The position numbers were made by a program, and so were the translations under genes. Below are positions 8,961 through 25,565 of a stretch of DNA of 25,795 bases, one piece after another. Position 1 is the stretch's first letter. Every line of letters begins with the position of its first letter. Source of the stretch: Bdellovibrionia bacterium (lineage in GTDB: Bacteria; Bdellovibrionota; UBA1018); contig JBMSSC010000025.1 of the NCBI GenBank assembly GCA_049424145.1, positions 1 to 25,795 on the forward strand, given 5' to 3'. The notes under the pieces are model-generated. The model did not search any database and was not told the origin of the DNA. It saw only the letters and a program-made list of their open reading frames with translations.

Positions 8961-9737
8961 TCAGTGCCAAGTTCGGGGATGATTTCCTGAGTCAGAATCA
9001 TCGCTTCCATCAAAATCCGTCTGAGCCGGGGGGACGAGCTTTAAGTGCTGCGCCTGCCGCCGTTTTTTTTGTCCAGAGCGGGAGTGGAACTTGGAACTTC
9101 TCTTTTGGGAGGCCCCACTCCAGGTCTTGGCCCAGCTCATACTCCTCCACCCCCTCTGCCCCCAGAAATAGGCCAGTCCTGCTGCCATTCCCCCGAGATG
9201 AGCCAATCCTGCCACCGCACTGCCGGATGAAAACACGGAATTCATCAGCTCGATACAAGCCAAGATCCAAATCATGTGCTTGGCTTTCATGGGAAACAGC
9301 ATCATGAAAAGCAAAACCCGATCTCCAAAAAGAAGGCCGTAGGCCATTAAAAGGCCATAGATGCCACCGGAAACCCCGACCAAAGGAGCCCAATGATGGC
9401 CGAACACGCTTTGAATCAAAAGATAAAGAAGGGCCGAGCCCAGGACACAAAAAAGGGAATACCGGATGAAACGAGGAGTTCCCCAGGTCTGCTCAAGCTC
9501 CGAGCCGACAAAAGCGAGCATCAGCAAGTTAAAAAACAAGTGCATCACATCGAGATGCACCAATGAGTAGGTGAGGATCTGCCAAACCTGCAGGCGATGC
9601 ATCACGCCGCTGAAAGTGAGACCCAGAACCTCCAACAGATGGGTTCCAAAAAACTGGTCTCCCGTTTGTTGAATCAGAAAAGTCACAAAACAAAGAACAG
9701 CTGTCCATTTCACAGCCGGAGTGAGACGAATGGGCAT
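8961..9737 (-). CDS. Rhomboid family intramembrane serine protease
   Basis: 'WQILTYSLVH..HLFFNLL', catalytic 'GVSGG' (GxSG) and 'AHLGG', with several TM helices. The start is likely the ATG at 9737 (MPIRLTPAVKW), just after the upstream stop at 9754. Confidence 0.92.
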   Translation of the reverse strand: MPIRLTPAVKWTAVLCFVTFLIQQTGDQFFGTHLLEVLGLTFSGVMHRLQVWQILTYSLVHLDVMHLFFNLLMLAFVGSELEQTWGTPRFIRYSLFCVLGSALLYLLIQSVFGHHWAPLVGVSGGIYGLLMAYGLLFGDRVLLFMMLFPMKAKHMIWILACIELMNSVFSSGSAVAGLAHLGGMAAGLAYFWGQRGWRSMSWAKTWSGASQKRSSKFHSRSGQKKRRQAQHLKLVPPAQTDFDGSDDSDSGNHPRTWH

Positions 9738-9753
9738 AAGTCTTATCAGTATA

Positions 9754-10161
9754 CTAACCTGGCTCCATGAGCTCAATCAGAATACCGCCGGCGTCCCCTG
9801 GATGAATAAAATTCACACGCATTCCTTGGGCGCCTGGCTGAGGTGCTTCATAAATCAGCCTCAACCCTTCTGCCCTCAACTGGTTTAAAATCGGCTCAAG
9901 CTCACCGGCAGAAAAACAAAAGGCCAGGTGATGAATGCCCGGACCTTTTTTTTCAATAAACCGTGCGACCGTCCCTTGAGGATCCAAGGGTTCTAAAAGC
10001 TCCAGATGAGTACTGGTTTCAGGCAGAGGAAGAAAATGAGTCATCACCCCTTGCTCTAAGACCGCTTGCTGGTGCTCCACCGTAAGACCGAGGATTGAAA
10101 ACAGCTTTTTCATTTGAGGGAGGTCTTTCACTGCAATTCCAATGTGATTGAGCGTAATCAT
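9754..10161 (-). CDS. mce: Methylmalonyl-CoA epimerase (VOC/glyoxalase superfamily)
   Basis: 135 aa with 'LNHIGIAV', 'EQGV', 'LELLEP', 'FIEKKGPGIHHLAF' and 'FIHP..AGGILIEL'. SD GGAGGAG lies upstream. Confidence 0.9.
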   Translation of the reverse strand: MITLNHIGIAVKDLPQMKKLFSILGLTVEHQQAVLEQGVMTHFLPLPETSTHLELLEPLDPQGTVARFIEKKGPGIHHLAFCFSAGELEPILNQLRAEGLRLIYEAPQPGAQGMRVNFIHPGDAGGILIELMEPG

Positions 10162-10248
10162 GGATCTCCTCCCTGATTTAACCGACTATCCGGTGAACAA
10201 TCAGAATTGCTGGAATTTTTACCATGATCGGGAATGGAGGGATAGGAG

Positions 10249-10337
10249 AAAAAAGGACGAGGACTACCCACACCTGTTGCTGTACCCGAAATCACCTCAA
10301 CTTCAGTAATTTCAGCAAGTGCAAGCAGTCCTCAGTC
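10249..10337 (-). ncRNA. Putative structured RNA element (long bulged hairpin plus U-tract); could be an sRNA, a processing site or a terminator
   Basis: Minus-strand pairings: GAGGACUGCUUGCAC with GUGUGGGUAGUCCUC (15 bp, 4 G.U), UUGCUG with CAGCAA (6 bp), and AAAUUAC with GUGAUUU (7 bp, 1 G.U), closing a 10-nt loop. U6 follows at 10254-10249. Confidence 0.5.
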
Positions 10338-10378
10338 AAGTCGCCTAAGCCTCGATTACCCACCAAAGTCCTCGTTGC

Positions 10379-11296
10379 CTAGACAATGATCTCATCGGTA
10401 GAGCAAGGAAGAACCTGAGGTCGATTTGCAGAAAAAGGGATGATTTTTTTCAGCTGATGATGAAGCCAATCCATTTCCTGTGAAGTAAAAAACAAAACAT
10501 AGGACACCATCATCAGACCAGCAAAGTAGGGCAATTGGAGAGCGACCCCAATTCCCAAGTGAAGAACCCCGCCTAAGAGGAGCATTGGACGTCTCAGACT
10601 CTGGCTCCAAACAAGCACGGGAAAGTAGATCTCCCAAAATAGGATCACATAATTTGACACGGCGAGCAAAGCAGGGTAACTGCCCAAAGCACTAAAATCC
10701 CACCGCGCGAGTGCAGGATTCATAAGAACATCCCAGACGGCTTCACCTCGCCACCAATGAGTCCCTGATAGCTTAAGAATTCCCGAATAAAAATAGATAA
10801 TGCACACCTGAACCTGAGTTAAACGCAGAAACAAGGAATTGAAGATCCTTCGATAACCCCTTGCACTTGGGTCTGCGTCCGCAAAAGATAGATAAAGAAG
10901 AAAATAAGTCGCAACGGAGTCTACCCCGTAGGCCACCACAGGGTTTCGATGTAAGAATGAAAGGTGAAGTAGGAAGGCTACAAAAGCCAGTAGCCTGGGA
11001 TAAACCCCCAAGGCCATGCCGAGCAAACTTCCTAAGAGCAGAATATGGCAAAACCAAAGCCAAAAAGTCCCTTTTAAAACGGTAAAAACCGAATAAAGAG
11101 CATAAGGACTGATCACCTCGGCCAAATTGGAGAGCATCAAAAGCCCTCGATCGGAGTAAAAATCCTCCAAATCGAAAGAACGGCTGATGAAATAAAAAAA
11201 CAACATGAAGCCGACCAGAAATCGAAACACGATCCCCTGTTTTTGAGCGGGAGACTGAAACCAGAACGAATCCCAACGGGCGTAAAGGGATCTCAA
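10379..11296 (-). CDS. HTTM-domain (SdpB / vitamin K-dependent carboxylase-like) integral membrane protein
   Basis: 305 aa, polytopic. Motifs 'LHRNPVVAYGVD', 'QVQVCIIYFYSGILKLSGTHWWRGEA' and 'LHLGI...LPYF' fit HTTM proteins. TTG start with SD AAGGA 6 nt upstream, 3 bp after the upstream stop. Confidence 0.85.
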   Translation of the reverse strand: MRSLYARWDSFWFQSPAQKQGIVFRFLVGFMLFFYFISRSFDLEDFYSDRGLLMLSNLAEVISPYALYSVFTVLKGTFWLWFCHILLLGSLLGMALGVYPRLLAFVAFLLHLSFLHRNPVVAYGVDSVATYFLLYLSFADADPSARGYRRIFNSLFLRLTQVQVCIIYFYSGILKLSGTHWWRGEAVWDVLMNPALARWDFSALGSYPALLAVSNYVILFWEIYFPVLVWSQSLRRPMLLLGGVLHLGIGVALQLPYFAGLMMVSYVLFFTSQEMDWLHHQLKKIIPFSANRPQVLPCSTDEIIV

Positions 11297-11299
11297 GGG

Positions 11300-11842
11300 C
11301 TATCCTTCTTTCTGCTCACAAAAACTATGGACCATCCATTGACGATCGGTTGAGGAGAGAGACTCTTTTAAAGACCCTGGCTGGGAAAGTTTGCGGCTGG
11401 CTTGAGTTAAGGCCAGAGGGTGCTCCGCTTTTTGCCAAATCTGAACCGACTTGGCCTGAGGCACTTGCGAGCAAACGTAGGGAACCATCATTTTCTCATA
11501 GCGATAAGAAGAACCGTACATGAACCGCACGACGGTGATTCTTCGATTTTGGCGCTCTCTAAAAAAATATGGATCAGGTGAGGTCGGCAAAGTTCCCTGT
11601 TGAATGACTTGCCCGGCAGAGTTGAGAGCCTCCCACTCCAGCGCAGCTGCGAATCCTGGCTCGGGAGCGAAAAAGCCCCACTCCGCCATGAGCCCTGAGA
11701 AACCTAAATAATCTTCAAACAAAAAACGAGCCCTCGCCCCGAGATCAGACTTGTAAAGCATGGGGGCCAACAATACCGATACCAGATGAAAGAGGAGCCA
11801 ACAGGAGAGAAGCCCCTTAACTCCTCTTTCATCCCACCTCAG
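11300..11842 (-). CDS. SdpA / DUF5819-like partner of the HTTM protein (start uncertain)
   Basis: Contains 'WGFFAPEP', resembling the W-x-F/L-F-x-x-x-P motif of SdpA/DUF5819 proteins. The frame stays open upstream of the track's TTG (11773) and encodes a TM segment 'LLSCWLLFHLVSVLLAP'. It lies directly upstream of the HTTM gene. Confidence 0.65.
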   Translation of the reverse strand: MRWDERGVKGLLSCWLLFHLVSVLLAPMLYKSDLGARARFLFEDYLGFSGLMAEWGFFAPEPGFAAALEWEALNSAGQVIQQGTLPTSPDPYFFRERQNRRITVVRFMYGSSYRYEKMMVPYVCSQVPQAKSVQIWQKAEHPLALTQASRKLSQPGSLKESLSSTDRQWMVHSFCEQKEG

Positions 11843-11850
11843 TTTGAAGT

Positions 11851-14079
11851 TTAAAATGTACCCATTCCTCCCATGCCGTAGCCCATGCTAAATCCACCCA
11901 TTGCCATCCCCATGGAGAAGGAACCCATCTGTAGCTGCTGTAAACGCTGTTGCGCTTGCATCAGTTGCTGTTGCGCCAACATCATATCGCCCTGATTTTG
12001 CATCGCATACTGTGGAGCCATACTGGCTTGCATCATCTGAGCATTCAACATCGATTGGTACTGAGGATTGCCATACCCTAAGCCTCCGTAGGGCATTGCG
12101 CCCATACCCATTCCCATACCGAAGCCACCCCCAACGGGCATGGTACTCACAGGCATACCACCCATTCCGAAAGGTGCACCAAGACCCATTCCCGTACCCA
12201 TCATCATCCCAGGCATCCCCATTCCCATGGCGGCCCCAGGAAAACCGGTATAGCCAGGCATGCCCATTCCAACTCCCATTCCTAAGCCCATGCCCGTCCC
12301 CATCGGCATCCCCATTCCCATGCCCATCATTCCAGGCATGCCCATTCCGACTCCCATTCCTAAGCCCATGCCCAAGCCCATCGGCATGCCCATTCCCATG
12401 CCCATCATCATCCCGGGCATTCCCATTCCCATGCCCATTGGCATGCCCATCATCATTCCAGGCATCCCAACGCCCATTCCGATCCCCATGCCTAAGCCCA
12501 TTGGCATGCCCATCATCATCCCGGGCATTCCCATTCCCATGCCCATCATCATCCCGGGCATTCCCATTCCCATGCCCATACCTAGGCCGAGACCCATACC
12601 ACCCAGAGGACCTCCCATGAAGCCAAACCCACCCATATAACCAGGAGGAGAGAGGAAACCAGGCATCGAAGGCACACCTACCCAATTATTGGCGTCTACG
12701 TATGCGCTATACATCCCGTTCTGATTATTCATGTAATTACTGTACATGTTGCTGTAGGCGTTCTGACCAATGGCGTAAGCACCGAGATTCATTCCTCCGA
12801 TCATCGCAGGAGTCAGCGCTGCAATGACTCCCATTGCAACTTCCCCTTTGCTCGGAACTCGGTTCACAAACCCTGCAGGCCCCATCATCCCAAAACCATA
12901 TCCCATGCCGCCTACGACGGACCCACCGGTAGCAGAGGTGTTTTGGGTACAATTCACGCAACCATATTTATCTTTAAGCTCGGCCTTAATTTCAGCAATC
13001 TCAGTTTGAATCTTAGAATTCGTTTCTTCGCATTCTTTATTTTGAATTTCCAGTGCACGAATCTCAAATCCGATTTGGGTGGGAAAACAGCTCATGAGAC
13101 GCCGTTTGCATTGAGGTGATATCTCCTCGATCTTGTCTTCACGCTTGAAGCTCTCAAAAATCTCTTCACAAAGATTTGGATTAAGCGGATTGCTCGCGTC
13201 AGCCCCCGTTTTTCCCACCTCCGAAACACCCTTCGAACTGTCCTCTGGACGATCTCCCGGCTCAACCTGAACCCCGACTGAATTGGACGCAGAACCGGAC
13301 GTCACAGCGGCAGCTGAAAAAGCCCTTCTTACCGGAAGAGTCCGTGCCCCTCCAGCAGAACCAGCACTTTTTACTCCAGGGGCAGAGACTGCTCTCGCTG
13401 AGGTCACTTTTTTTGAAGCATCGGAAGTCGCAGCTTGAATCGGTGAAGCGGCAGATGCCCAGCCGGCAGGTAAGGAGTCCGTTCTTTTATTTAACGGAAC
13501 CTTTTCAGCAGCACCCAAATTCGGCTCAGAGGCTGCTCGCAATCCGCTCGGAGTGCTATCCGAAATCTGAATTTTAATATCGTCAGCACTTACTGAGGGA
13601 TCTGACTTCACGGCTGAATCCAAAGAAGCAACCTTTCTACCCCCCTGAGATTCATTCTCTTCAGACTCTACAGCCGCGGAAGAGACTCGAAATCGAGAAT
13701 ACTGAAAATCCGAAGCAAGGCAGTTGTCTTCATTTGGAGTGAGGTGACATTTGCTCTGACAACCCCCATGCATCGCCTCATAGGCACCCGCTTTCACTCG
13801 ATTCATTAAACCCGAATGAGAAATCGCTAATTTCTTCTTTTCAATATCGAGTTTATTGGTTTTGATGAGCTTTTCACACTTTCCCAATTCTTTTTGTAAG
13901 CTATCTCGCCTCAGAATCAGGTCTTCACGCTCTTGGCTTACGGGACTTTGCCCCTGAGGAATCGCCGGATACATGATTTGAGCTGAACTAGGAGAGGAAG
14001 CTAAAAGCGATGAACAGAGCAAACTAATGCCTACCGTCTGATTCAAATGGACCTTCTTCTGAGTTCGTTTGAATTGCAT
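11851..14079 (-). CDS. Large secreted hypothetical protein with Cys/coiled-coil N-half and Gly/Met-rich low-complexity C-half
   Basis: Likely start is the ATG at 14079 (SD AAGGA 6 nt upstream), giving 742 aa. It has a signal peptide ending 'SPSSA', two coiled-coil-like segments, ~10 Cys including CVNC (12960-12949), then (GM)n/PGMMM repeats and a Q-rich helix. Confidence 0.85.
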   Translation of the reverse strand: MQFKRTQKKVHLNQTVGISLLCSSLLASSPSSAQIMYPAIPQGQSPVSQEREDLILRRDSLQKELGKCEKLIKTNKLDIEKKKLAISHSGLMNRVKAGAYEAMHGGCQSKCHLTPNEDNCLASDFQYSRFRVSSAAVESEENESQGGRKVASLDSAVKSDPSVSADDIKIQISDSTPSGLRAASEPNLGAAEKVPLNKRTDSLPAGWASAASPIQAATSDASKKVTSARAVSAPGVKSAGSAGGARTLPVRRAFSAAAVTSGSASNSVGVQVEPGDRPEDSSKGVSEVGKTGADASNPLNPNLCEEIFESFKREDKIEEISPQCKRRLMSCFPTQIGFEIRALEIQNKECEETNSKIQTEIAEIKAELKDKYGCVNCTQNTSATGGSVVGGMGYGFGMMGPAGFVNRVPSKGEVAMGVIAALTPAMIGGMNLGAYAIGQNAYSNMYSNYMNNQNGMYSAYVDANNWVGVPSMPGFLSPPGYMGGFGFMGGPLGGMGLGLGMGMGMGMPGMMMGMGMGMPGMMMGMPMGLGMGIGMGVGMPGMMMGMPMGMGMGMPGMMMGMGMGMPMGLGMGLGMGVGMGMPGMMGMGMGMPMGTGMGLGMGVGMGMPGYTGFPGAAMGMGMPGMMMGTGMGLGAPFGMGGMPVSTMPVGGGFGMGMGMGAMPYGGLGYGNPQYQSMLNAQMMQASMAPQYAMQNQGDMMLAQQQLMQAQQRLQQLQMGSFSMGMAMGGFSMGYGMGGMGTF
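12397..12579. repeat. 33-bp coding repeat (encodes GMGMPGMMMGM)
   Basis: Identical copies of catgcccatcatcatcccgggcattcccattcc at 12397-12429, 12505-12537 and 12538-12570, plus a partial copy to 12579. Degenerate copies span ~12100-12610. Confidence 0.9.
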
Positions 14080-14561
14080 ACCGCTTCCTTTCAATCCTTG
14101 TTCTCAAACCAGTTTCAATTCTTCTATCTCGTCATTCTATATCGAATTATTTTTTAAATCAAAAAGAGATTTAAATAGAAAAAACCTGATTAATTCACTT
14201 TTAATAATAAAACACAGAGGGTTCAATCATTCGTTCATTAATCTGAAGTGAAAAAAACCATTAACCGCAGGAAATAAAGAATACGAATGAGAAGAAGCAG
14301 AAGCATTCCTATCTTTCTAACGTCAAATCCATGGCTACAAGAAGGTGAGAAGACACTCCACCTGAGAAAAGTCTAATATTCGACTCTCAAGTGAGATCAC
14401 CCATCAAACCAAACATCGAAAGACTGAAAACCCCGCTAATCACTCTAAATCACAACCGACGGCCTGAAACACCAAGTACCCAGTCCAAAAATGCGTGCCT
14501 CAGCCCAGCTAGCTTCCCTTTTCTACAAAGAGAGGTCGCTTTCTTCATGAAGAATCAGAGT

Positions 14562-14584
14562 AAAAACGAAGAGGGGTTCTCCCC
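14562..14584 (-). terminator. Possible weak intrinsic terminator after the 36-aa ORF
   Basis: Minus strand GGGG-AGAA-CCCC followed by TCTTCGTTTTT, immediately after the TAA. Confidence 0.35.
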
Positions 14585-14586
14585 GA

Positions 14587-14697
14587 TTAGCGAGTCTTGC
14601 GCACCGACTGTCGGCGTCTTTTGACCCGAGCCTTCTTCGCAGCTTGACGTCTTCTGTTTTTCATTTTCTGAGCTTTATTTTTTCTGCCTCGTCCCAT
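14587..14697 (-). CDS. Small highly basic protein (36 aa)
   Basis: Below the ORF-track cutoff; translated by hand as MGRGRKNKAQKMKNRRRQAAKKARVKRRRQSVRKTR*. Nineteen of 36 residues are K/R and none are acidic. A short hairpin and T-run follow. Confidence 0.7.
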   Translation of the reverse strand: MGRGRKNKAQKMKNRRRQAAKKARVKRRRQSVRKTR

Positions 14698-14753
14698 ACC
14701 TTTATTTTTCTGACACTTTCTCTAAATAATCAAGTAGTTTAATAAAAGGCTAA

Positions 14754-14782
14754 TTGCCCGGATCCAATCCTTCTGCTAGTTT
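14754..14782 (+). promoter_or_regulatory. Candidate sigma70-type promoter for the carD-family gene
   Basis: TTGCCC (14754-14759), a 17-bp spacer ending in TGc, and TAGTTT (14777-14782), with an AT-rich tract upstream. Confidence 0.35.
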
Positions 14783-14896
14783 TAAATGAAGACATTTTTA
14801 CGCCTTGAGTTAAGCTGATTCTCAATCATAATTTAATAAAATTAAAAAAAGAATAAACAAAGAGACTCAATTGAGCCTCAAAAAAGGGGAGAAAAC

Positions 14897-15466
14897 ATGG
14901 AAACCTACAGTCCAGAGAAAATCCAAAAAACGGAGTTTCTTCCCGGCACTTATGTCATTTATGCAATGCATGGAAAGTGCTACCTCGCAGGACGAGAGAC
15001 GCGAACCATCGGTGGGGTACCGATTGACTTTTACAAACTTGAGCTTAAAAAGGCCCCGTTATCTCGTTCTCAAAAACAAGAGCCTGCCATTTGGGTTCCC
15101 GTTGCTCATGCTCAAGAACGGGGCTTGAGAGCCGCAATGTCTCAGCCCGAAGCCGAGGCTGCTCTTCAGATCCTGATGAGCAGGGAGTATTATTTTAAAC
15201 TTTTAGATGAACCTTGGAGCACCCTTCAGCCCCAACTCGAAAACACGATCCGAATCGAAGGGGGCGAGGGACTGGCTAAGGTAGCCAGTTTTCTCTACGT
15301 CCTGGCTAAAAAACAGATGGTTCCCTCAAGTGACCTATTAAAGTTCAAAGAGAATGTGTTTAAACTCCTGCTGAAAGAGATCTCCGATGCGCTCTGCCTC
15401 AATTCAAAAGCCATTGAAGAGAAGATTCAAAAGGGACTCAGAAGCAAACTCTTTACGGATAGCTAA
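14897..15466 (+). CDS. CarD/CdnL family RNA polymerase-binding transcription regulator (divergent)
   Basis: N-terminal CarD/TRCF-RID pattern 'FLPGTYVIYAMHGKC...ETRTIGG...FYKLE...IWVPV...GLR'. The helical C-domain has a Trp in 'DEPW'. SD GGGGAG lies upstream. Confidence 0.85.
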   Translation: METYSPEKIQKTEFLPGTYVIYAMHGKCYLAGRETRTIGGVPIDFYKLELKKAPLSRSQKQEPAIWVPVAHAQERGLRAAMSQPEAEAALQILMSREYYFKLLDEPWSTLQPQLENTIRIEGGEGLAKVASFLYVLAKKQMVPSSDLLKFKENVFKLLLKEISDALCLNSKAIEEKIQKGLRSKLFTDS

Positions 15467-15501: not shown

Positions 15502-18500
15502 TTAGTCGACTTGAATGGACTGAACGATTCGTAAAATCTCGTTTCCATAGAGGGTCTCAGCCTTAGGTCCGACTCCTTTAACGCTTCGAAACTCTTGAAG
15601 GTTCTTCGGTTTCTCCACGGCGAGGGTTTGCAAGACTCGGTCACTTAAAATTCGAAACGCAGGAACGCCTCGTTCAAGTGCAAGCTTCAAGCGCCACGAC
15701 TTGAGGGCTTCAAAGACGCCGCGCTCGGAAGAGGACTCCGTCTCCTGAAATCGTGAATACGGCTTACGGGAAGAGGCCAGCGAGGAGGCCTTCTTGCTGC
15801 TTTGGGATTTTAAGTGAGTTTTGGACTTCAACCTAGAGGAAGACGACGCGGAGCGTAAGTGAGTTTTTCCCGAGGTAAAGGGTAAGCGGATTTTCTTTAA
15901 GTCAGCAGCCGTTGCGCTCAGACCCTTGGCACACGCCGATACTGCGCGATAGGTAATTTCTTGGGCTCCTTTTTGAAACGTCTCTTCACTGACCTCCAAC
16001 CATCGGGCTTGCGAAAGACCTTTTAAAATCCTCTCAAACTCATTTCGTTCCGTGTTCGGGGCCATTTCTTGAACTTCTTGAAACAATCGCCCCACTGGAA
16101 TCAAGCTTTGGCCAACTAAGGAAACCATCACAGCGGAGATGATCTGCTTTTCAAGCTCGGTGACCCCCTCATTGAGGGCACCTCCTTGCTTCAGAATCGA
16201 GTTCTGAGAGTGCTCGGAGTCGGGGTCACAAAAGTCACAAACTCCACAGTTTTGACCTGAGTCAATCTGATCTCCAAAGTGACGCACGAGATTTTTCATG
16301 CGACACTCCATTTTTTCAGTAAATGCGACCATCTGCTTGAGTTGCTTTTGCTTGGTGCGATATTGCTCGAGGTAGGCATTTTGCCACTGAGGACTCCCTT
16401 GAGAGATATTCTCCTCAGGATCGATTAAAGCGCCCTGGTGAATCCAGAGTTTCTCAAGCGCCTTGTCAAAAGAGTCGGGGTCCAGCTTCTTCACCTTTTT
16501 TTGAGCTTGAGCTAAAATCCAATCTTTAGGCTGTTTCTGTTCACTTAAGAGGTCATAGATCGCAGCCAACAGACTCACGTCGGGATAGTCTCGCTCGAAA
16601 AAAAACTCATGCGTTCTTTGATCAGCATACGAGTGAAGGAGAACTGCAACCGAAGGCTTCCCATCGCGTCCGGCCCGACCAATTTCTTGATAATAGCCTT
16701 CGACACTCCCTGGAAGGCCTGCATGAATGACGGTTCGGACATTCGACTTGTCAATCCCCATGCCAAAGGCCACGGTGGCAACGACCACCTCTAAACGTCC
16801 TGCCAGAAATTGGCTCTGAGTCTGATCCCGGGCTTGCGAGGACATTCCGGCGTGATAAACCTCCACATGAAAATGCCGCTTCAGCTCAGCCGTGAGGCTC
16901 TCGGCCAACTTTCGAGTGGGGGCATAGACGATCGCAGGGAGTCGATCTTTTCCTTTTAAAATCATTAACGCCAGCTCAAGGCGTTCACTGGGTTGAGCGA
17001 CCCAATTTTGGATCGCAATGTTGGTTCTTCTAAAACCCTGAATGAAGCGCGTCTCATTCTGAAACCCAAGCTGAGTAGCAATATCAGTCTGAACCAACGG
17101 GGTCGCCGTTGCCGTTAATGCGATGACGGGTGCGGGCTTGAGCTCCTGAAGGCGACTCCCTAAGAGCCGATAACTGGGCCTAAAATCATGACCCCATTGA
17201 GAGATGCAATGAGCCTCATCTACGGCAATGAGCGCAGGGGGGCGACGAGCGAGCATCTCCACAAACCCCGGGACCCCTAAGCGCTCAGGCGCAATAAAGA
17301 GAAAGTTCAGCTGGCCAGAGAGGTAATCTTGACATGCTTTTCTAGAATCGGATTTAGCCCGAAGCGAATGAATCCTCTCGGAACGCAGGCCCATTCGATT
17401 GAGTTTCTCCACCTGGTCCTCAATGAGTGCCACCAAAGGGCTAATCACTAAGGTGGTTCCACCCCGAGCTAAGCCAGGCAATTGGTAACAAAGGGACTTT
17501 CCTGCGCCCGTAGGCATGACTAATAGAACGTCAGCTCCCTGCAGTACAGCGCGACAGACGGCCTCTTGATGGGGTCGAAACTGATCGAATCCAAACCGCG
17601 CTTTGAGCAATGCCTGGAGGTCTTTTGGGTCCAACGAACTCTGCTGGCCTGAGGCTTGGACTCTTAAGGAGGCTTGGTTCTGGGCATGAGGTGAGCCAAC
17701 TAGGGAGGCATCCTGAGAGTTGAAACGGCCTTCATTCGAAGAGGCGAGCCCCGATTTGAGATCCCCGGAAGAAGCCCCTAAGAACTCAGGATCTCTTCCA
17801 GGCAGATGAGCGAGGGTTTTAGGCGGTTGGCTTAGGATTTGCGTGACTTGCTTTTGAATTTCGTTCTCCAAAGAAGCCATGAACGCTGAGAGGGTTTTCT
17901 TCTGCGCTTGAATGAGGGCTAAGTCCTTTTCCCATCGCGCAGTGAGCTCCGGGCTTTTAATCGAATCATCCACCGACTCAATCAGGCGAATGCCCATGTC
18001 TGTGGCTCGAAGGGTTTTTCCCTCTCGCTTCAGATAGTTTCGCGAAAGGAGGGTTTCAATCATGGCAGCACGCGTGGCGGCAGTTCCGATCCCACAGTCT
18101 TCAATGGCTCTTGCGAGGTTTCGATCCTCGATCCTGCGACCTGCATTTTCCATTGCAGAAAGGAGCGCGGCCTCAGTTAAAGGAGGAGGGGGAGTCGTTT
18201 TTTTCTGATCCACTTGGGCTTTTTGAACCCGAACTTCTAGTTTTTCCTGGATCCAAGCCGGCAAGCGCCGCTGAAACGCATCGGATTGTCCTTTGATCTC
18301 AAGCCTTCTCCAACCGGTTTGAATTTCCGTCATCCCTTGGGTGAGAAATAGCGCTTCATGGGCGTGAAACTCCTCCGGCGAGTCTTCGGGGACTTGAACT
18401 TCGGTTAAGACGGTGGTGAGAGACGTGATGTGATCTTCTTGCCATGCTGACAGCAGCCGCCGCGCGATGAGGTCGTAGACTCGATCCTCATCAGAGCTTA

Positions 18501-19728
18501 AAGGCTTCGAAGATCGAGACACTTCCGTGGGAATTATGGCATGGTGATCGCTGACCTCGGCATCATTCACAAAGCGCTTGGATAAGCTCACTTGACCTGT
18601 TGCATCCACCAGGAGTGAGGCATAGGGAGCTTGAATTTGCTCAACGATTCTCGGCAAAGTGTCGGCAACGCTACTGGAGAGCACCCGACAATCCGTCCTG
18701 GGATAGCTAATGAGCTTATGCTTTTCATATAAGGCTTGAGCAATCTCAAGCGTTCTTGCGGCTGAGAATCCAAACAGGCGATTGCAGTGCCTTTGAAGCT
18801 CGGTTAAATCATAGAGGAGGGGCGGAGGATCTTTCACCTCTTTTGTCTTAAGACGAAACACCTGAGCCACACCGCGACGAATGAGTTCGGCTAACGCTTG
18901 AGCCTGCTTTCCGTCTGCAGCAAAACGCTTGGGCTTCAGTGAGGAGAGTTCCTTGTGTAACTGAGGTTCAAGCTCTTTTTTACTCCCACAGTAGGTGCCC
19001 GAGTAGGAGGTCGGCTGAGCCCCTGAATCAGGTATGGCCTCCTTTTGTTTCTCAAAACTGGCCGTGAGCTCAAAGTAGGTTTCAGGCTTGAAGTTCAGAA
19101 TTTCCAAATCCCGCGCCACCACAATGGCAAGCGTGGGGGTCTGCACGCGCCCCACAAAAAAGGGCTCACCTGTGGATAATGTATAGGCCCGAGAGAAATT
19201 CATCCCGACTAACCAATCGGCTCGACTCCGGGCACGAGCGGCATCGGCAAGGGCATCGTAACGATTCGACTGAGCCAACTGCTCAAGCCCTTTTTCAATG
19301 GCCTGCGGGGTCAGCGAGGAGATCCAAAGGCGCTGAAAAGGTCCTTGATACCCTGCCATTTCAATGATGTAGCGAAATATCAACTCCCCTTCCCGGCCAG
19401 CGTCGGTAGCACAGATCAGGGATCGGGATTGATGGATCAGGCGTTTGAGTAGTTCAAACTGAGATTCCGTGTTTTGTAAAACCTTCAGAGGCCAGCAAGA
19501 GGGAATCATGGGAAGAGTCGTTTTTCTCCACATTTTCCAGTCTGGGTTGATCTCATACGGTTCCGGGATCGTGACCAAATGCCCCAGGGCCCAACTCACC
19601 AGGTATCCATTGCCGCTTAAGTACCCGGAATGCGACTGGGTTGCACGTACGACCTGGGCAATATCCCGAGCAACCGAGGGCTTCTCTGCGATAATCAGAA
19701 TTGAGTTGAGTTTTTGCTGAACTCCCAT
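15502..19728 (-). CDS. DNA topoisomerase III - RecQ helicase - HRDC fusion protein
   Basis: Single frame, likely start ATG 19728 (SD AAGGA), ~1408 aa. Topo IA/TopB motifs: '[12 protein letters not shown]', 'GHL', '[12 protein letters not shown]', 'GRVQTPTL', catalytic 'ISYPRTD', 'GIGTAATRA'. RecQ motifs: '[10 protein letters not shown]', '[14 protein letters not shown]', '[15 protein letters not shown]', 'TATA', 'AFGMGIDK', '[10 protein letters not shown]', Zn site 'CR...CGVCDFC'. HRDC: 'ALKSWR...GVPAFRIL...VKGVG'. Confidence 0.95.
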
Positions 19729-19911
19729 TGAATCCTTAACCTTAGGGCTGAACCGGATGCATTTGAGGGGAGGGGTCCAGTCCACATCCAAGCTCGCCCT
19801 CTAAATTCTACTTCACACTCATCACCCACTGATCTGAGCTGAACTGACTAGGCTGAATGACTCTTCTACTCCGTTATAGCAGAAAATCAAAACACCGTGT
19901 GCTTGGGTTTT

Positions 19912-19955: not shown

Positions 19956-22900
19956 TTAACGGCTCAAGTGAGACGACCTTGATAAAGTGGCGACCGGGGC
20001 TTTAAACGCGCTGAGCACCTGAAAAATGTGGGCCTGTTGTCGTTTAAAAAACTCGTTCGTATGAGTCACGGCTCCTGCGCTCTCCTCAGTATGAGTCCAC
20101 TCATGGGTCAAGGTATTAATCCAGCTTGCCTGGAGCTCTAGATCGTGACCCAAGGGATCCGATCCTTCCTTAGCAAACGTCTGACAATAGGATTTAAACG
20201 CGGAGCTCACCAAATTGACCTCAATCACTCGAGGCTCTGAGCTTTGGCCCTGACGTGCCCGAGCCATTGAATCTTCAGAACTCGAATAATAATGAATTTG
20301 GAGCGAATTCATCGGACCCATGATCTTGCCAATCTTCACTAAAAACTGATCGAGATGACCAGTGCACTTCGAGATCTGCTCCTCATCGAGCCCCAGTTGC
20401 TTAGTAACGGACTGGTGAAGGGATTTCATCTCCTTCGAATCGCTGGCAGGCTTTGCGGTGTGCTCCTTAAACTCAGGGTCCAATCTAGCCAAGTGCGCCT
20501 GCAGTTCTGCTTCTTTTTCCTTCTGTTTAAAATAAGGACGGACGATCCTCGAAATCACATTCTTCAAATGGCTCTGATCATCGGAACTTAAAGAGCTGAC
20601 GTTTCTTTTCTTGAGAATTTGTTCTTTGATCAGATTGCTCACATCGTCTTGTACAGAATAGCCGTAGCCCTGACTTAAAAATGGAGTTGCCTCCTTCTCA
20701 AGGATTTGAAAAACCTGTTCAGATAGCTCAAAGAAGTCCCATGAGTCCTTTGACCGGGATGGATCCGTTGAATTTAAAAAAGGGATCGGTGCCGCAAGCT
20801 GAATCATCGTCAGTCGATCGGAGTGGGAGGAAGGATCGTCAGAAAAAATATCTAAAATCGTCTTCGAATCCTTCTTGGAAGCCGAATCCCTCAGTGAATT
20901 CATGTACTGGGCTCGCAAACCTCGCGCGGCGTTTATCTTCTCACGATATCCCCCTCGGTCGACGTTATATCCATAATCATACCCCATCAGACCGTGCACT
21001 TCTTCATCTGAAACATATAAATTTCTAGCGTCATTTAATTTTGAGCGAAGTGCTCGAGTCACCAAATCCCTGGCCTGACTTCGAATCAAAGGATGAACTG
21101 ACGGATCGACAAAGCCAGATCGACCTGGAAGCTGCTTAAGGTTAGCATCATCTAGGTCGAGCCTAAGATCTGAAATAAGACTTTCAAACTTGGCTTTTTT
21201 CGAACTTGGAATCTCTGGAAAAAAACCCACAATCGAAAGATCAGCTAGAGGCGCACCATTGTAACAGACTTTGCCCGCATTCTGATAAGACTTGACTAAA
21301 TTAAATTTTGCACCTTGCGATGGATCATTTGCTAAGTGGACTTGATGATTGGATTGAATCACTTCTTTCTTCCCTCGGGCAGCAGAGAATCGGTCGTCCC
21401 CATGAATCTTCAGGTCCCCCGAAAAAGCGTCTCTCAGGGATTGAAACCGCTCGGTAAGCGTGGAAAACTCCAAAGGAGAGAACTTCTTGGATTTTCTCGC
21501 TCGAATTTCAGTCCCAGGACTCCCTGATGCATCATCAACCTGCTCTTCGTGAAACCGAAAGACCTGATCGGTATTCGTCAAATAGATACGACTCTTTTTA
21601 GGTTCACCCTCTTTCTTCGATTCGACCAAAACTTCATCAAAGTACTTAAACAGCGTGAAAAAACCCCACCCAAAATTGATATCCCCATCAGCTCGACTTT
21701 TTGTGGTCAAATTGGGAATATAAAAAGCTGACATTCGACCCAACCCCACTCCATGGCCATCATCCTTGATCGAAACAGTGACATTTTTCGTCGACAACTC
21801 ATCGAACCCTATTTTCACATCGAGATTCTTTGCGTTTGCCTCATTTGCATTTTTCAAGATCTCATAAACCCAAGAATACTCGTTTGGGTTTTGATTGGAG
21901 GCAACATGGTACTCCTTCTGAATCAGAAAGGAGTCGCGCCCCAGCACTTTTCTTACCTCCAGATTTTCAGAAATCGGAATGCTCTTGCTCGGCGGGGAAA
22001 ACCCTACTTGAAACTTCTCACTTCCAGGTACCTGTAGACTTGGATTTAAAACCGCATCTAAATAAGGAGCGAATTGTTTACAATCAGCATGCGCTCGGAT
22101 CGGACCAAAATCTCGGTAGGCATCCTCGAGAGACCTTGGAGATCGACCTTTCTCCAAGAGATGATTAATAATCTGATTTGTGCACTTGTAGTTATGGTCA
22201 ATACTAATCGCAGAGACACCCTCTGAACTGGTCAATATCTCAACACAATTCTTCGAGAACTGCTTTGTCAACTCATCCGAACCCGAGCTTGAAAACTTCA
22301 AACCACAGAGAGCGTTTTGAAGAAGTGCAAATCCTCCCCGATCCCAGGGCAGTTGATGAACGGGTGCGGAAGAAAAAAAACGAATTACCGAATCCGACAA
22401 ATAGGGAGGCAAATCCTTCAACATTTTTTGTTCCTGCTCAAAATCAACGGGTCTCGTCTCATTTTTCAATACTCCACCCAAGTGAGGAATACCAAAGTAC
22501 CTTAACTCTCTTATGCGGAAGATCTTCGGGGGTTCAAGCAAATGCCGAGCAGATAAAAGAAAGATGAGATTTTCTCCATCGATCTTTTTTCCCGCCGCTT
22601 TTAAGAGACGAAATTCGTTTAAGACGTCATGGAGACCAATAGATGGATGATCCTCAAGGTATTTCTGCAGCCTTGCTGCTCCGAAGATATCTTTATTACT
22701 CTCAAGCCCGTTCTCATACCCTCTGACTGGAAAGATCCGAGCAAAAAACTCATCCAAATCATTCTTATCTTTCACTGAATTCAATGCCCCGGGCCGAATT
22801 GATTTTGTAAACTGCCATAGCAGGTTTTGATAAATCTCCATTACCTTGGCCGGACCATGAGAAGGCTGATATTTGACTCCTGCTATTCCTGAGGACTCAT

Positions 22901-25565
22901 AGAAACCACGAAAAAACTCGTCTAAACTACGCTGACGTTCCTCTTCTTCTTCTTTTTTCATCAGGAGATCGCGAAGAACCTCTTTAGACACTCCCAAAAA
23001 GTAACCCTGAAATTCCCTCTCGATCGCAAGCGATTTCTCTTTTTCATTTTTAAAAGTTGAATACCTTGGAGGAATCTTATACATGTTGCTAATCTGCTGC
23101 TGAACATCGAAGAGACCCTGATCAGATGAAGCGATGTCTCGAGCTTGCTCTACAAGAGTCTTTCGTAAAAGCGGATGAGATGGGTCCACATGAGAGTCCA
23201 CCAAAACAAAGGTCTTTGAGCCAGATTTTGCGACCTCCATGACTCCGTCCAGTTTTTTCCCAGGAGTTAATTGAATGGGAAGAAAGATCAGCGACTCCGA
23301 GGGAGGGTCGACTAAATCTTCGTAGAGGTCAGAGTGGACCAGATTTTTAAAGTTGATCTCCACGAGAGCCTTACCCTCTTTTTCCTTCAGCTTTTGAATA
23401 TCTTTTAAAGATCCCACAGCGGGTAAGACCTTCCAGTGTCCAAATTTTTTTGGAATCCATTCATTCAAAATAGAACTGGCATTATCCTTACTCAACAAAA
23501 ACTGATAAAAGCTATTGATCAAAGTTAAGCGACTCTGCTCAGGCTGTTCATCAATCGCTTTTAAGATCCCCTTGAAAACATCTCTTGCTGCAGGCGAACT
23601 GAAATCCAAGGTACTCCGATCGGAGGTCAATGGAGTATCCTCAGGTAACTCAACCACCAGATGAGGGTAGAGATTAACTCCAGAAATTGGAACTTCTTGA
23701 ATGACTACGCCATTCACGAGAACACTGATTTTGGAACTCCCTTCTTTCTGGGGCTCACCAAAAACTTTGACTCGAGCGCGGTCCGCCTGAAATTCTAATC
23801 GGGGACGATCTAAACTCCGAATGGGGGCTTCATTGAGTAAGATCTCCGCCTTCTGGTTGTACTTGAACTTTCCGATCACAGCATCACTTTGAATTTGTCT
23901 TAAGGAGGATTCGTCTAATTGAGCCGAGCTCATCAGAATCTGAGTCCCGTGGTTCTGACAGGGAGACTCAGGGGAGTGAGGAATTTCATCCAAATCCGTA
24001 ACGAGCTCGCCGTTTTTTCGATGAATCTTAATTTTTAAACATCCGTCTTTGGACGACTGAGAGCGGGTGTGAATCTCTAGAAAGTCGTTCTCCGTTTTGA
24101 GCAGAGCGAGATTCGAAAAAAAGCCTTGACCAAATCGTCCGGTCACCCCCTGAGATGCCTGTGCATGATCCACAAGCATTTTATTTCGGGAGCGATGAGG
24201 GGTGAGCAAATAGCGGACGACATCATCCAGACCCATTCCCACTCCCTGATCACTGACGGACACCACACCCTTGCCATCGGCTCCTGCTCTCACTTCGACC
24301 TTCACGCTTGGGGGATGCGTAGTCTCACCCCGATGCTCAGGCTTGTGGTAATAGGAATCGATGGCGTTGGCAATGAGTTCTCGGACCGATTGATTCGCCT
24401 CCACTTGATAGTCTGAGAGAATTTGTAAGTCCTTTTTACTTCTCTCTCGCATTTGTGGCGATACCTGAAGCTTCTTCATCTGTTCGCTTAACCGCCTTAG
24501 GTCATCGACCGGAGGATCAAGATCAGGATCCAACATTCGTCCATAGTCGATCCAATCGAGGAGAGAGGCAGAGATGGAGGACGATTGAGGCAGCGCCTCG
24601 GTTTTTTTGGGACTCAAGGGAGAGTCGAGTTTTTGCATTGTAGACGCGGCCAAACTTCCTACGGAAAACACATTATCCACTTCGGCGACGAGAGATTTCA
24701 GAGGAGGTTCCACACGAGTTGGGGAGGGCAAACAGAGTGCACTGGGTGCCTTCGAAGTTCCTTGAGCGAGTATAGGGATAGCAGGTGTAGCAGTTGTAGA
24801 CTGAACCGACTTTTGAGGCTGAACCTCTTCTAAGTCCTCAAGGGCGAGCTGATGATAGGCTTGAACCAGGCGATCATAGCCTAAAAGAGCGGCGTCATAT
24901 TTCTTTTTCTGTTCGGTTCTGGACAAACCCGTTTGCCGAGAATGGAGATAGTCGGCAATCAGCACATCGTAAGCCTGGGCCGCCTGAAGGTATTTTTCCA
25001 CGCCTGAGAAAGTCTGAAGGTGGGTCACAAAAGCCTTCATCAGGGACCCATAAGCCGCTGAAGAGGCTTGACTCCCCTGATGTCCTTTTTGTTCACTTGA
25101 ATGCTCATCCATCAGATGATTTCGGTAAGCTTTTGCTGCAGTCTTGAGGGCTTGATTCGAATCCGTTTCGGAGAGCTGTTTGACCAATTCCTTATAGAAA
25201 TGAGCAATTTGGGCCTGCACGGTGGGAATCTCGACCCCCTTTTTTGTGGTGGGTGCGGCACGTGAACTCGGAGAGAGCGAGGATTGATATTGGATGAGGG
25301 CCTCAATCTGTCGATCGGATTCTGCTGCCGACTTGGCCCGAACGACCTTGATGGCATCTTGAAGCGCGTGCCGAAGTGCCTGCTGACGATCGGGCGACCA
25401 TTCGAACGCAGGCAGGGGTGCTGCGCTCCCCTCGACTGGGGGATGGGGATGGGTAGGGTTGCTTGTGGGATGAGCATAAGCCAACAGGCCAGAGACACCC
25501 CAGGAAGCTAAGAAAAACCCGATCGAGGCGACCTTCCGCGTGTTCAGTCTTGTCCAATTTGCCAT
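19956..25565 (-). CDS. Giant exported protein with two GHKL (Hsp90/MORC-like) ATPase domains and a C-terminal HExxH motif
   Basis: 1869 aa with a signal peptide ending 'LLAYA'. GHKL-1 (~24390-23930): 'RELIANAIDS', 'SDQGVGM', 'GRFGQGFFS', 'GTQI'. GHKL-2 (~21875-21500): 'YEILKNANEA', 'DDGHGV', 'NFGWGFFT', 'GTEI'. 'THEWTH...HTNEFF' lies at ~20108-20046. Confidence 0.85.
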   Translation of the reverse strand: MANWTRLNTRKVASIGFFLASWGVSGLLAYAHPTSNPTHPHPPVEGSAAPLPAFEWSPDRQQALRHALQDAIKVVRAKSAAESDRQIEALIQYQSSLSPSSRAAPTTKKGVEIPTVQAQIAHFYKELVKQLSETDSNQALKTAAKAYRNHLMDEHSSEQKGHQGSQASSAAYGSLMKAFVTHLQTFSGVEKYLQAAQAYDVLIADYLHSRQTGLSRTEQKKKYDAALLGYDRLVQAYHQLALEDLEEVQPQKSVQSTTATPAIPILAQGTSKAPSALCLPSPTRVEPPLKSLVAEVDNVFSVGSLAASTMQKLDSPLSPKKTEALPQSSSISASLLDWIDYGRMLDPDLDPPVDDLRRLSEQMKKLQVSPQMRERSKKDLQILSDYQVEANQSVRELIANAIDSYYHKPEHRGETTHPPSVKVEVRAGADGKGVVSVSDQGVGMGLDDVVRYLLTPHRSRNKMLVDHAQASQGVTGRFGQGFFSNLALLKTENDFLEIHTRSQSSKDGCLKIKIHRKNGELVTDLDEIPHSPESPCQNHGTQILMSSAQLDESSLRQIQSDAVIGKFKYNQKAEILLNEAPIRSLDRPRLEFQADRARVKVFGEPQKEGSSKISVLVNGVVIQEVPISGVNLYPHLVVELPEDTPLTSDRSTLDFSSPAARDVFKGILKAIDEQPEQSRLTLINSFYQFLLSKDNASSILNEWIPKKFGHWKVLPAVGSLKDIQKLKEKEGKALVEINFKNLVHSDLYEDLVDPPSESLIFLPIQLTPGKKLDGVMEVAKSGSKTFVLVDSHVDPSHPLLRKTLVEQARDIASSDQGLFDVQQQISNMYKIPPRYSTFKNEKEKSLAIEREFQGYFLGVSKEVLRDLLMKKEEEEERQRSLDEFFRGFYESSGIAGVKYQPSHGPAKVMEIYQNLLWQFTKSIRPGALNSVKDKNDLDEFFARIFPVRGYENGLESNKDIFGAARLQKYLEDHPSIGLHDVLNEFRLLKAAGKKIDGENLIFLLSARHLLEPPKIFRIRELRYFGIPHLGGVLKNETRPVDFEQEQKMLKDLPPYLSDSVIRFFSSAPVHQLPWDRGGFALLQNALCGLKFSSSGSDELTKQFSKNCVEILTSSEGVSAISIDHNYKCTNQIINHLLEKGRSPRSLEDAYRDFGPIRAHADCKQFAPYLDAVLNPSLQVPGSEKFQVGFSPPSKSIPISENLEVRKVLGRDSFLIQKEYHVASNQNPNEYSWVYEILKNANEANAKNLDVKIGFDELSTKNVTVSIKDDGHGVGLGRMSAFYIPNLTTKSRADGDINFGWGFFTLFKYFDEVLVESKKEGEPKKSRIYLTNTDQVFRFHEEQVDDASGSPGTEIRARKSKKFSPLEFSTLTERFQSLRDAFSGDLKIHGDDRFSAARGKKEVIQSNHQVHLANDPSQGAKFNLVKSYQNAGKVCYNGAPLADLSIVGFFPEIPSSKKAKFESLISDLRLDLDDANLKQLPGRSGFVDPSVHPLIRSQARDLVTRALRSKLNDARNLYVSDEEVHGLMGYDYGYNVDRGGYREKINAARGLRAQYMNSLRDSASKKDSKTILDIFSDDPSSHSDRLTMIQLAAPIPFLNSTDPSRSKDSWDFFELSEQVFQILEKEATPFLSQGYGYSVQDDVSNLIKEQILKKRNVSSLSSDDQSHLKNVISRIVRPYFKQKEKEAELQAHLARLDPEFKEHTAKPASDSKEMKSLHQSVTKQLGLDEEQISKCTGHLDQFLVKIGKIMGPMNSLQIHYYSSSEDSMARARQGQSSEPRVIEVNLVSSAFKSYCQTFAKEGSDPLGHDLELQASWINTLTHEWTHTEESAGAVTHTNEFFKRQQAHIFQVLSAFKAPVATLSRSSHLSR

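Follow-up and report, generated by a model that had tools for sequence, protein, structure and literature searches.

We analyzed a stretch of 25,795 nucleotides from a Bdellovibrionia bacterium (contig JBMSSC010000025.1 of assembly GCA_049424145.1; the whole stretch is called the window), DNA that occurs in aquatic metagenome runs and whose named relatives fall in Bdellovibrionota. Our subject is a trio of co-oriented minus-strand open reading frames (ORFs) which, in the direction of reading, are a Gly-rich gene, a gene for a small membrane protein and a gene for an HTTM membrane protein; the last two are referred to as the pair. The original prediction had described three co-oriented genes between an AT-rich upstream region and a structured 3' end, and this layout was confirmed. 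All three ORFs are present, the 817 bases upstream have a G+C content of 37.8% compared to 48.5% for the window, and folding of the 3' region beat that of 200/200 shuffled sequences (z -4.0). The 3' hairpin was not flagged by a simple terminator scan, in which terminators, like sigma-70 promoters, were found at chance level, and an Rfam search of positions 9700-15000 gave no match. Coordinates are collected in Table 1.

Table 1. Features of the locus, with their positions in the window.
Feature	Positions	Strand	Identity or basis
742-residue, putatively exported Gly/Met-rich protein	11851..14079	-	unannotated Bdellovibrionota family; probable remote homologue of B. bacteriovorus Bd3304
Sec-type signal-peptide-like N-terminus, residues 1-33	13981..14079	-	read from the sequence rather than by a predictor; homologues start alike
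CxxC (CVNC) at coiled-coil end	12949..12960	-	both Cys invariant in alignments
Gly/Ala/Pro helix, moderately hydrophobic, residues 412-430; followed by YxxY stretch and G-[IV]-P	12790..12846	-	hydropathy, conservation
Conserved Gln-rich helix, after the Gly repeats and before a Gly tail with aromatic last residue	11923..12066	-	homologue comparison
Single-pass membrane protein, ~180 residues, DUF5819-like (SdpA-like by analogy only)	11300..11842	-	start codon uncertain
HTTM membrane protein, 305 residues, predicted GGCX transmembrane fold	10379..11296	-	model, fold and profile matches
Terminator-like long hairpin followed by U run, 3' of HTTM gene	10256..10337	-	region fold z -4.0
AT-rich intergenic region, shared with divergent CarD-like gene	14080..14896	none	base composition, neighbor annotation
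Methylmalonyl-CoA epimerase (mce)	9754..10161	-	context only, outside the system; opens the conserved downstream block

The large protein, translated from the ATG at 14079, bears out the prediction of a secreted-like product in which a CVNC motif precedes a nearly uncharged cargo: CVNC occupies residues 374-377, and the 367 residues that follow contain 28.6% Gly, 24.3% Met, 2.5% Thr and 6 charged residues. It exceeds all other members of a set of 4202 stop-to-stop ORFs from the genome in Gly plus Met richness. Pfam and NCBIfam gave no match for this protein, and ESM Atlas gave no usable one. A core profile collected 156 clusters at 50% identity, which we refer to as the Gly-rich family, and detected it in 138/401 Bdellovibrionota genomes; it matched 32/57 genomes of the source organism's family and 44/53 of the family that holds the Bdellovibrio-type loci. 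In the N-terminal part of these proteins, a signal peptide is followed by a coiled coil, a Cys-rich insert, a second coiled coil and an invariant CxxC. Beyond it come a Gly/Ala/Pro helix, a YxxY stretch and G-[IV]-P; Gly repeats of variable extent then lead to a Gln helix, and the chain closes with an aromatic residue. The Gly-X repeat region spans 250-650 residues almost without charge. Both Cys residues of the CxxC were kept in 20/20 rows of one alignment (A2) and 41/41 of another (A5), and the motif is present also in homologues without the pair. Residues 412-430 form the sole 19-residue segment of the protein with a mean hydropathy above 1.3 (1.41), and the C-terminal residue is F, Y or W in 19/21 pair-adjacent homologues and F or Y in 13/18 pair-less ones. 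The idea that the Gln helix and this aromatic end build an anchor resembling that of trimeric autotransporters was considered and set aside. Literature searches, with most subscription journals beyond their coverage, found no paper on the Gly-rich family, which appears to be an undescribed, probably exported family of Bdellovibrio-like bacteria.

We also observed that assemblies often break within the Gly repeats, ~1 kb upstream of the HTTM gene (loci L035, L039-L043, L274-L284), with the effect that metagenome-assembled genomes under-annotate the large gene. It occurs in tandem or near-tandem duplicates in four pair-less genomes of the source family (L228, L230, L235, L241). The genome of the window encodes further large secreted-looking proteins with Gly/Met/Pro-rich tails (L291 1969-3840; L290 1-1167; L292 1-1476; G000 C64 7982-8830), none of which is matched by the family profile.

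The small protein carries the motif WGFFAPEP and has seven invariant positions (W55, F57, F58, P60, P86, C124 and C175); its structural model is confident, with a predicted local distance difference test score (pLDDT) of 90.3. The codon at 11842, where the original prediction started the gene, is CTG, and no in-frame ATG, GTG or TTG is found before 11773, a start that would delete a conserved transmembrane helix. A frameshift or sequencing error was considered and rejected, because no indel occurs at this position in the contigs of 4 runs, which come from 3 studies; probably the gene uses a non-canonical start codon. The original prediction had described the pair as SdpA-like and SdpB/HTTM-like, of which the HTTM/SdpB-like part held, with a partner that resembles DUF5819, while the likeness to SdpA did not. 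The SdpA model TIGR04034 matched neither the small protein nor its 60 aligned members. The DUF5819 model PF19136 left the window's protein unmatched and matched 1/60 homologues, at E 0.009; the predicted structure aligned to a DUF5819 cluster with a template modelling (TM) score of 0.63, under the tool's bar for naming. No clear match emerged from other fold searches (best Z 5.1; Foldseek E 0.12), a result that speaks for neither novelty nor difference, and a profile search against PDB sequences found nothing.

Profile searches with the HTTM protein gave a weak match to the SdpB model TIGR04033 (E 2.9e-5, 23.8 bits against a cut-off of 178.4, which the B. subtilis control passes). The 305-residue protein itself was unmatched by PF05090 (HTTM), whereas 24/64 members of its alignment matched; these matches, together with a GGCX fold match, place it in the HTTM superfamily. 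Its model (pLDDT 91.8) resembles the transmembrane part of human GGCX, the vitamin K-dependent carboxylase, with a Foldseek E of 2.8e-6 and a TM score of 0.65, and the predicted structure aligned to GGCX with Z 21.6 and a root-mean-square deviation of 3.4 over 267 residues. A broad HTTM profile (A4) found GGCX at E 2e-23, although a profile of close homologues (A1) missed it. K175, W181, E222, H246 and F258, which are invariant in 64/64 aligned members, correspond to GGCX K218, W223, D263, H287 and F299. The Glu-binding residues were not kept: in the profile alignment, N159 and H160, reported to bind the substrate Glu carboxylate (PMC12647623), fall on G124 and V125, beside a near-invariant D126. 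Thus, the protein shares with human GGCX the transmembrane fold and the five residues (D263 as Glu), but the window's enzyme is split in two genes, spans GGCX residues ~42-333, lacks N159/H160 and is 19% identical. Neither the profile nor the model of the small protein matched GGCX when its Tyr395/Met401 region and clamp domains were considered.

A preprint modelled a DUF5819-HTTM pair as a GGCX-like complex and proposed a vitamin K carboxylase role for it (10.64898/2026.08.19.745780). By analogy with that model, the pair may form one split GGCX-fold enzyme, and from the same model and GGCX, the complex would be expected to face the periplasm. As described in the accessible part of the preprint, the DUF5819-HTTM complexes, and MloH, resemble the window's pair in having adjacent single-pass and HTTM proteins, a GGCX-like fold, and Lys, Trp and Phe at matching spacing. 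The window's pair differs in having neither a fused DCC1 nor a PF19136 match, and in lying next to a candidate protein substrate, where that part of the preprint names none. A second, divergent small-protein and HTTM-like pair with an NWRFF motif was observed in the same genome (L289 4205-5610, G000 C76), upstream of a large methionine-synthase-like ORF.

Next to the pair, the Gly-rich gene was found directly upstream in 26/26 genomes of the source family with a close HTTM orthologue (E <= 1e-60); in 14 of these the genes share a contig, and in the other 12 a contig end leaves a Gly-rich 3' fragment of the gene. Within the family, therefore, the predicted linkage to a secreted low-complexity gene was borne out; among 401 genomes of the phylum, the Gly-rich gene occurred in 76/94 with an HTTM orthologue versus 72/307 without, the 76 comprising 67 profile matches and 9 contig-end fragments from genomes whose kinship makes them not independent. 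The linkage did not extend to relatives in general. Among 80 loci from GTDB, scpB stood upstream of the pair in 37 and the Gly-rich gene in 25 (24 recognized by script, with L051 added); a MenE-like ligase held this place in 5 loci and some other gene in 8, while in the last 5 the upstream gene had no assignment or lay beyond the contig. In 40 further loci, mostly picked from genomes without pair adjacency, the pair never adjoined the Gly-rich gene. Moreover, 13/32 family genomes carrying the Gly-rich gene (82-98% complete) had no HTTM match at all, and the gene stood without the pair in 12/12 family loci with visible downstream DNA, running straight into mce in 7/12.

Two results nevertheless argue for a connection. 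The tight spacing of the trio persists at 35-50% HTTM identity. In addition, in 9/10 loci examined, a separate HTTM clade follows an exported protein that is unrelated and contains a Gly/Ser/Tyr tract, and 3/3 tested proteins of this kind matched TIGR03000 over its cut-off. Because 5/1892 ORFs of the genome used as background are as Gly-rich as this partner, the second pairing is our best argument for a substrate link. These TIGR03000-type proteins, whose Gly/Ser/Tyr tracts are N-terminal, adjoin the related pair in L185 (5566-8936) and in L183, L169, L179, L181, L182, L187, L188 and L190; one of them also weakly matches the His-Xaa-Ser repeat protein HxsA4.

For the function of the large protein, the closest guide is B. 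bacteriovorus. The Bdellovibrio-type homologues are encoded by a gene of 2154 bp (717 residues) flanked on one side by a metal-dependent hydrolase gene and on the other by divergent genes for a response regulator, a secretin and an ATPase. Gene order and length fit Bd3303-Bd3307 in published tables, and we therefore identified the Bdellovibrio-type gene as Bd3304. Its parts, from the signal peptide through to the Gln helix, are arranged as in the window's gene, but it has different neighbors (response regulator, Flp secretin, ATPase and hydrolase) and only remote sequence similarity, with reciprocal profile matches of 3e-5 to 1e-2. We consider it likely that the window's protein is homologous to Bd3304; orthology is less sure, since many Bdellovibrio genomes carry two copies of the Gly-rich family gene.

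Bd3304 was reported to be induced 11.7-fold in attack phase, with 322 versus 27 reads per kilobase per million mapped reads (PMC3627812), and to drop to a level of 0.6 on prey entry (PMC2797640). In a transposon sequencing (Tn-seq) study, according to its tables, insertion mutants had predation fitness values of 0.004, 0.060, 0.036 and 0.083, and 0.0009 in a mini-library, while their values for attachment (0.72) and rounding (0.89 +/- 0.65) were both over the paper's thresholds for a defect (PMC6561027). The hydrolase gene downstream was mildly impaired (0.17-0.65; PMC6561027), and polarity thus does not explain the Bd3304 defect. The gene is absent from the mutants that were validated singly, and the same tables list it as having 'no signal sequence', in contrast to the typical signal sequence in the ORF that we read (PMC6561027). 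Full-text searches of the coverage given above found no relevant paper on Bd3304, Bd1978 or Bd1979, the latter two being the Bdellovibrio counterparts of the pair: two hypothetical genes of 510 and 900 bp after scpB, assigned by order and size.

Taking these results together, we propose that the pair modifies the Gly-rich protein as an accessory step, probably by epimerization or dehydration, and we assign this proposal a probability of about 45%. The locus would contain two separable modules, the Gly-rich exported protein and the split GGCX-fold enzyme. The former is a putatively Sec-exported member of an old Bdellovibrionota family, with a disulfide-braced coiled-coil hairpin and a membrane-seeking Gly/Ala/Pro helix. 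Self-assembly, within the envelope or where the cell contacts its prey, is its most likely behavior; by extension from Bd3304, it likely acts in predation after attachment. The enzyme module would provide optional tailoring of exported Gly-rich proteins, here its neighbor, whose core function would be independent of it. Its likeliest chemistry would be proton removal at a peptide C-alpha, leading to epimerization or dehydration as attributed to LinH/LinL. This suggestion is based on the retained Lys, the lost Asn-His, the menaquinone genes wanting in many hosts (see below) and the linaridin precedent.

In the linaridin clusters (cypemycin, corynaridin), an HTTM protein, LinG or LinH, and a small partner, LinL, work on a ribosomal peptide, and dehydration and epimerization have been attributed to them. 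LinG is described as an HTTM protein (PMC9927463), LinHL is listed as an epimerizing system (PMC10406935; PMC10849128), and gene deletion was reported to abolish the product (10.1101/2020.07.09.196543). Unlike these clusters, the window contains no short Thr-rich precursor and no LinT or LinM; the adjacent precursor has 742 residues with the Thr-poor cargo described above, and no LinE-like alpha/beta-hydrolase was found among the scanned neighbors. At most, the locus works like the HTTM modules of the Sdp or linaridin systems.

Several observations weigh against this proposal. Gly-adjacent HTTM genes form one clade in a quick tree (support 96, with three exceptions inside), which implies that the adjacency arose once and that the 26 cases represent one event. 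The gene mce follows the pair in 32/37 trio loci just as it follows the Gly-rich gene elsewhere, making the pair an optional insert in a conserved block. Repeat composition was equal in 21 proteins with and 18 without an adjacent pair, so that no class of residue stands out as the site of a modification. The pair and Bd3304 are unlinked in Bdellovibrio; Bd1978 and Bd1979 mutants were reported as unimpaired (fitness 0.98-1.9 and 1.7-4.3, with large errors; PMC6561027), and the two genes as induced 11.6- and 13.6-fold in growth phase, whereas Bd3304 peaks in attack phase. This dispensability applies to the window's pair through remote homology, and HTTM paralogues could compensate. The predation link itself is borrowed from a Bdellovibrio homologue, the window's locus being known from its sequence. 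HHalign gave 96.8% over 93 columns between the window family and the Bdellovibrio type (reversed control, 47.7%), but the part after CxxC alone gave 5.9% and the Gln helix 20%, which are weak values above controls, and a Bdellovibrio-only profile scored the window's protein at E 1.7.

An alternative that we regard as quite possible is that the genes are unrelated neighbors. The pair would then be a phylum-wide membrane enzyme with another substrate (another exported protein, a lipid or a quinone) that came to lie, a single time and in an ancestor of the family, between the Gly-rich gene and mce, and has been carried along in the conserved block. Single origin, the pair-less Gly-rich loci, the missing compositional signature, and the opposite expression phase and reported dispensability in Bdellovibrio all agree with this, as do the other contexts of the pair, namely the many scpB loci and the end of a men operon in another family. 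What speaks against it is that a related pair adjoins an exported Gly-rich protein a second time, independently and over a low background, that gene spacing stays tight among divergent HTTM proteins, and that peptides or peptidyl intermediates are the substrates in every characterized HTTM system that we encountered in the literature.

In our view, it is improbable that the enzyme is a true vitamin K (menaquinol)-dependent carboxylase whose targets are acidic residues, such as those in the large protein's Glu/Asp-rich coiled coils. The GGCX fold and the equivalents of K218, W223 and F299 are retained, and such a role was proposed in the preprint for DUF5819-HTTM complexes (10.64898/2026.08.19.745780). 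In the loci examined that have a MenE-like ligase upstream, which belong to a sister family, a DUF5819-like/HTTM pair closes a menF-D-H-B-A-C-E operon as its final two genes (L063 86-8918; L058, L133, L067), a position that hints at a quinone cofactor, and the window's genome has menB. However, the residues equivalent to N159/H160 are replaced, and the preprint itself notes a blocked substrate channel (10.64898/2026.08.19.745780). The presence of the pair showed no correlation with menaquinone genes in the family genomes: menB was found in 7/25 pair-bearing and 5/16 pair-less genomes, and mqnC in 0/41. Consequently, 18/25 pair-bearing genomes (74-97% complete, with scavenging from prey possible) had neither menaquinone route in our searches.

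Finally, the original prediction suggested that the trio resembles SdpABC as a dedicated unit, with the pair needed to release a hydrophobic toxin or fiber near CVNC; in B. subtilis, SdpA and SdpB are reported to be required for SdpC processing (PMC6818787). SdpABC and YitPOM likewise place a small membrane protein and an HTTM protein beside a secreted protein with Cys before a hydrophobic segment, and the weak SdpB match, the gene order conserved in the family and the invariant CxxC before the helix fit this, but we consider the model very unlikely, because the SdpC model TIGR04032 gave 0 matches at E <= 1 in the 95%-complete genome (the B. subtilis control passes), the sole match of the SdpA model TIGR04034 there (E 0.25) is on another contig, no SdpI/YitQ-like immunity gene is adjacent (the neighbors are CarD-like, mce, rhomboid, FAD oxidoreductase and lysS), the host is Gram-negative, the low-complexity cargo of ~370 residues is ~9 times the 42 of SdpC, homologues lacking the pair conserve the CxxC and cargo to the same extent, and the pair is reportedly dispensable where the substrate homologue is essential, which contradicts the model for Bdellovibrio if Bd3304 is the orthologue. 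We are thus highly confident that the trio is not an Sdp-type toxin unit.

A more far-reaching version of our proposal, which we regard as a long shot, would join its parts. Predatory Bdellovibrionota would export a predation-linked Gly-X polymer of several hundred residues, the Bd3304 family, in which the pair would turn many L- into D-residues, a mass-silent modification resembling, at the scale of a protein, that of RiPPs, peptides which the ribosome makes and which are altered after translation. Equally speculatively, such residues would tune a beta-helix, pore or fiber that acts after attachment and might be comparable to gramicidin or polytheonamide, and the same enzyme type would serve the unrelated Gly-rich exported proteins in Planctomycete-type loci.

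Regarding the surrounding genes, the conserved downstream block consists of mce, a rhomboid gene, a thioredoxin reductase-like gene and lysS. In most loci of the family, pair present or not, the rhomboid protease gene (window 8961-9776, minus strand) lies 2-3 genes downstream from the Gly-rich one, and a rhomboid-like ORF also lies near a Bdellovibrio-type locus (L257 12738-13457). The rhomboid might have the conserved Gly/Ala/Pro helix as its substrate; coincidence within a housekeeping block is equally possible. Elsewhere in the window, positions 15502-19791 (minus strand) encode a 1429-residue topoisomerase (Toprim/Topoisom_bac) fused to a RecQ helicase with an HRDC domain, and positions 19956-25565 (minus strand), in DNA of lower G+C content, encode a 1869-residue protein with two HSP90/sacsin-like ATPase regions, which is possibly defense-related.

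Bacterial HTTM/DUF5819 pairs are widespread, and our literature searches found no assigned substrate for the Bdellovibrionota clade. The locus described here offers a candidate substrate and a residue-level argument against Glu carboxylation, and Bdellovibrio is a genetically tractable host in which the enzyme and candidate substrate genes are separable. The more valuable result is the Gly-rich family, an unannotated family of ~156 clusters tied, through probable homology, to a Bdellovibrio gene reported as near-essential for predation. Mutants of Bd3304 still attach to and round prey in pooled assays, and what predators require after attachment is poorly understood; the family would provide a tractable protein, with conserved motifs, for the study of this stage of predation.

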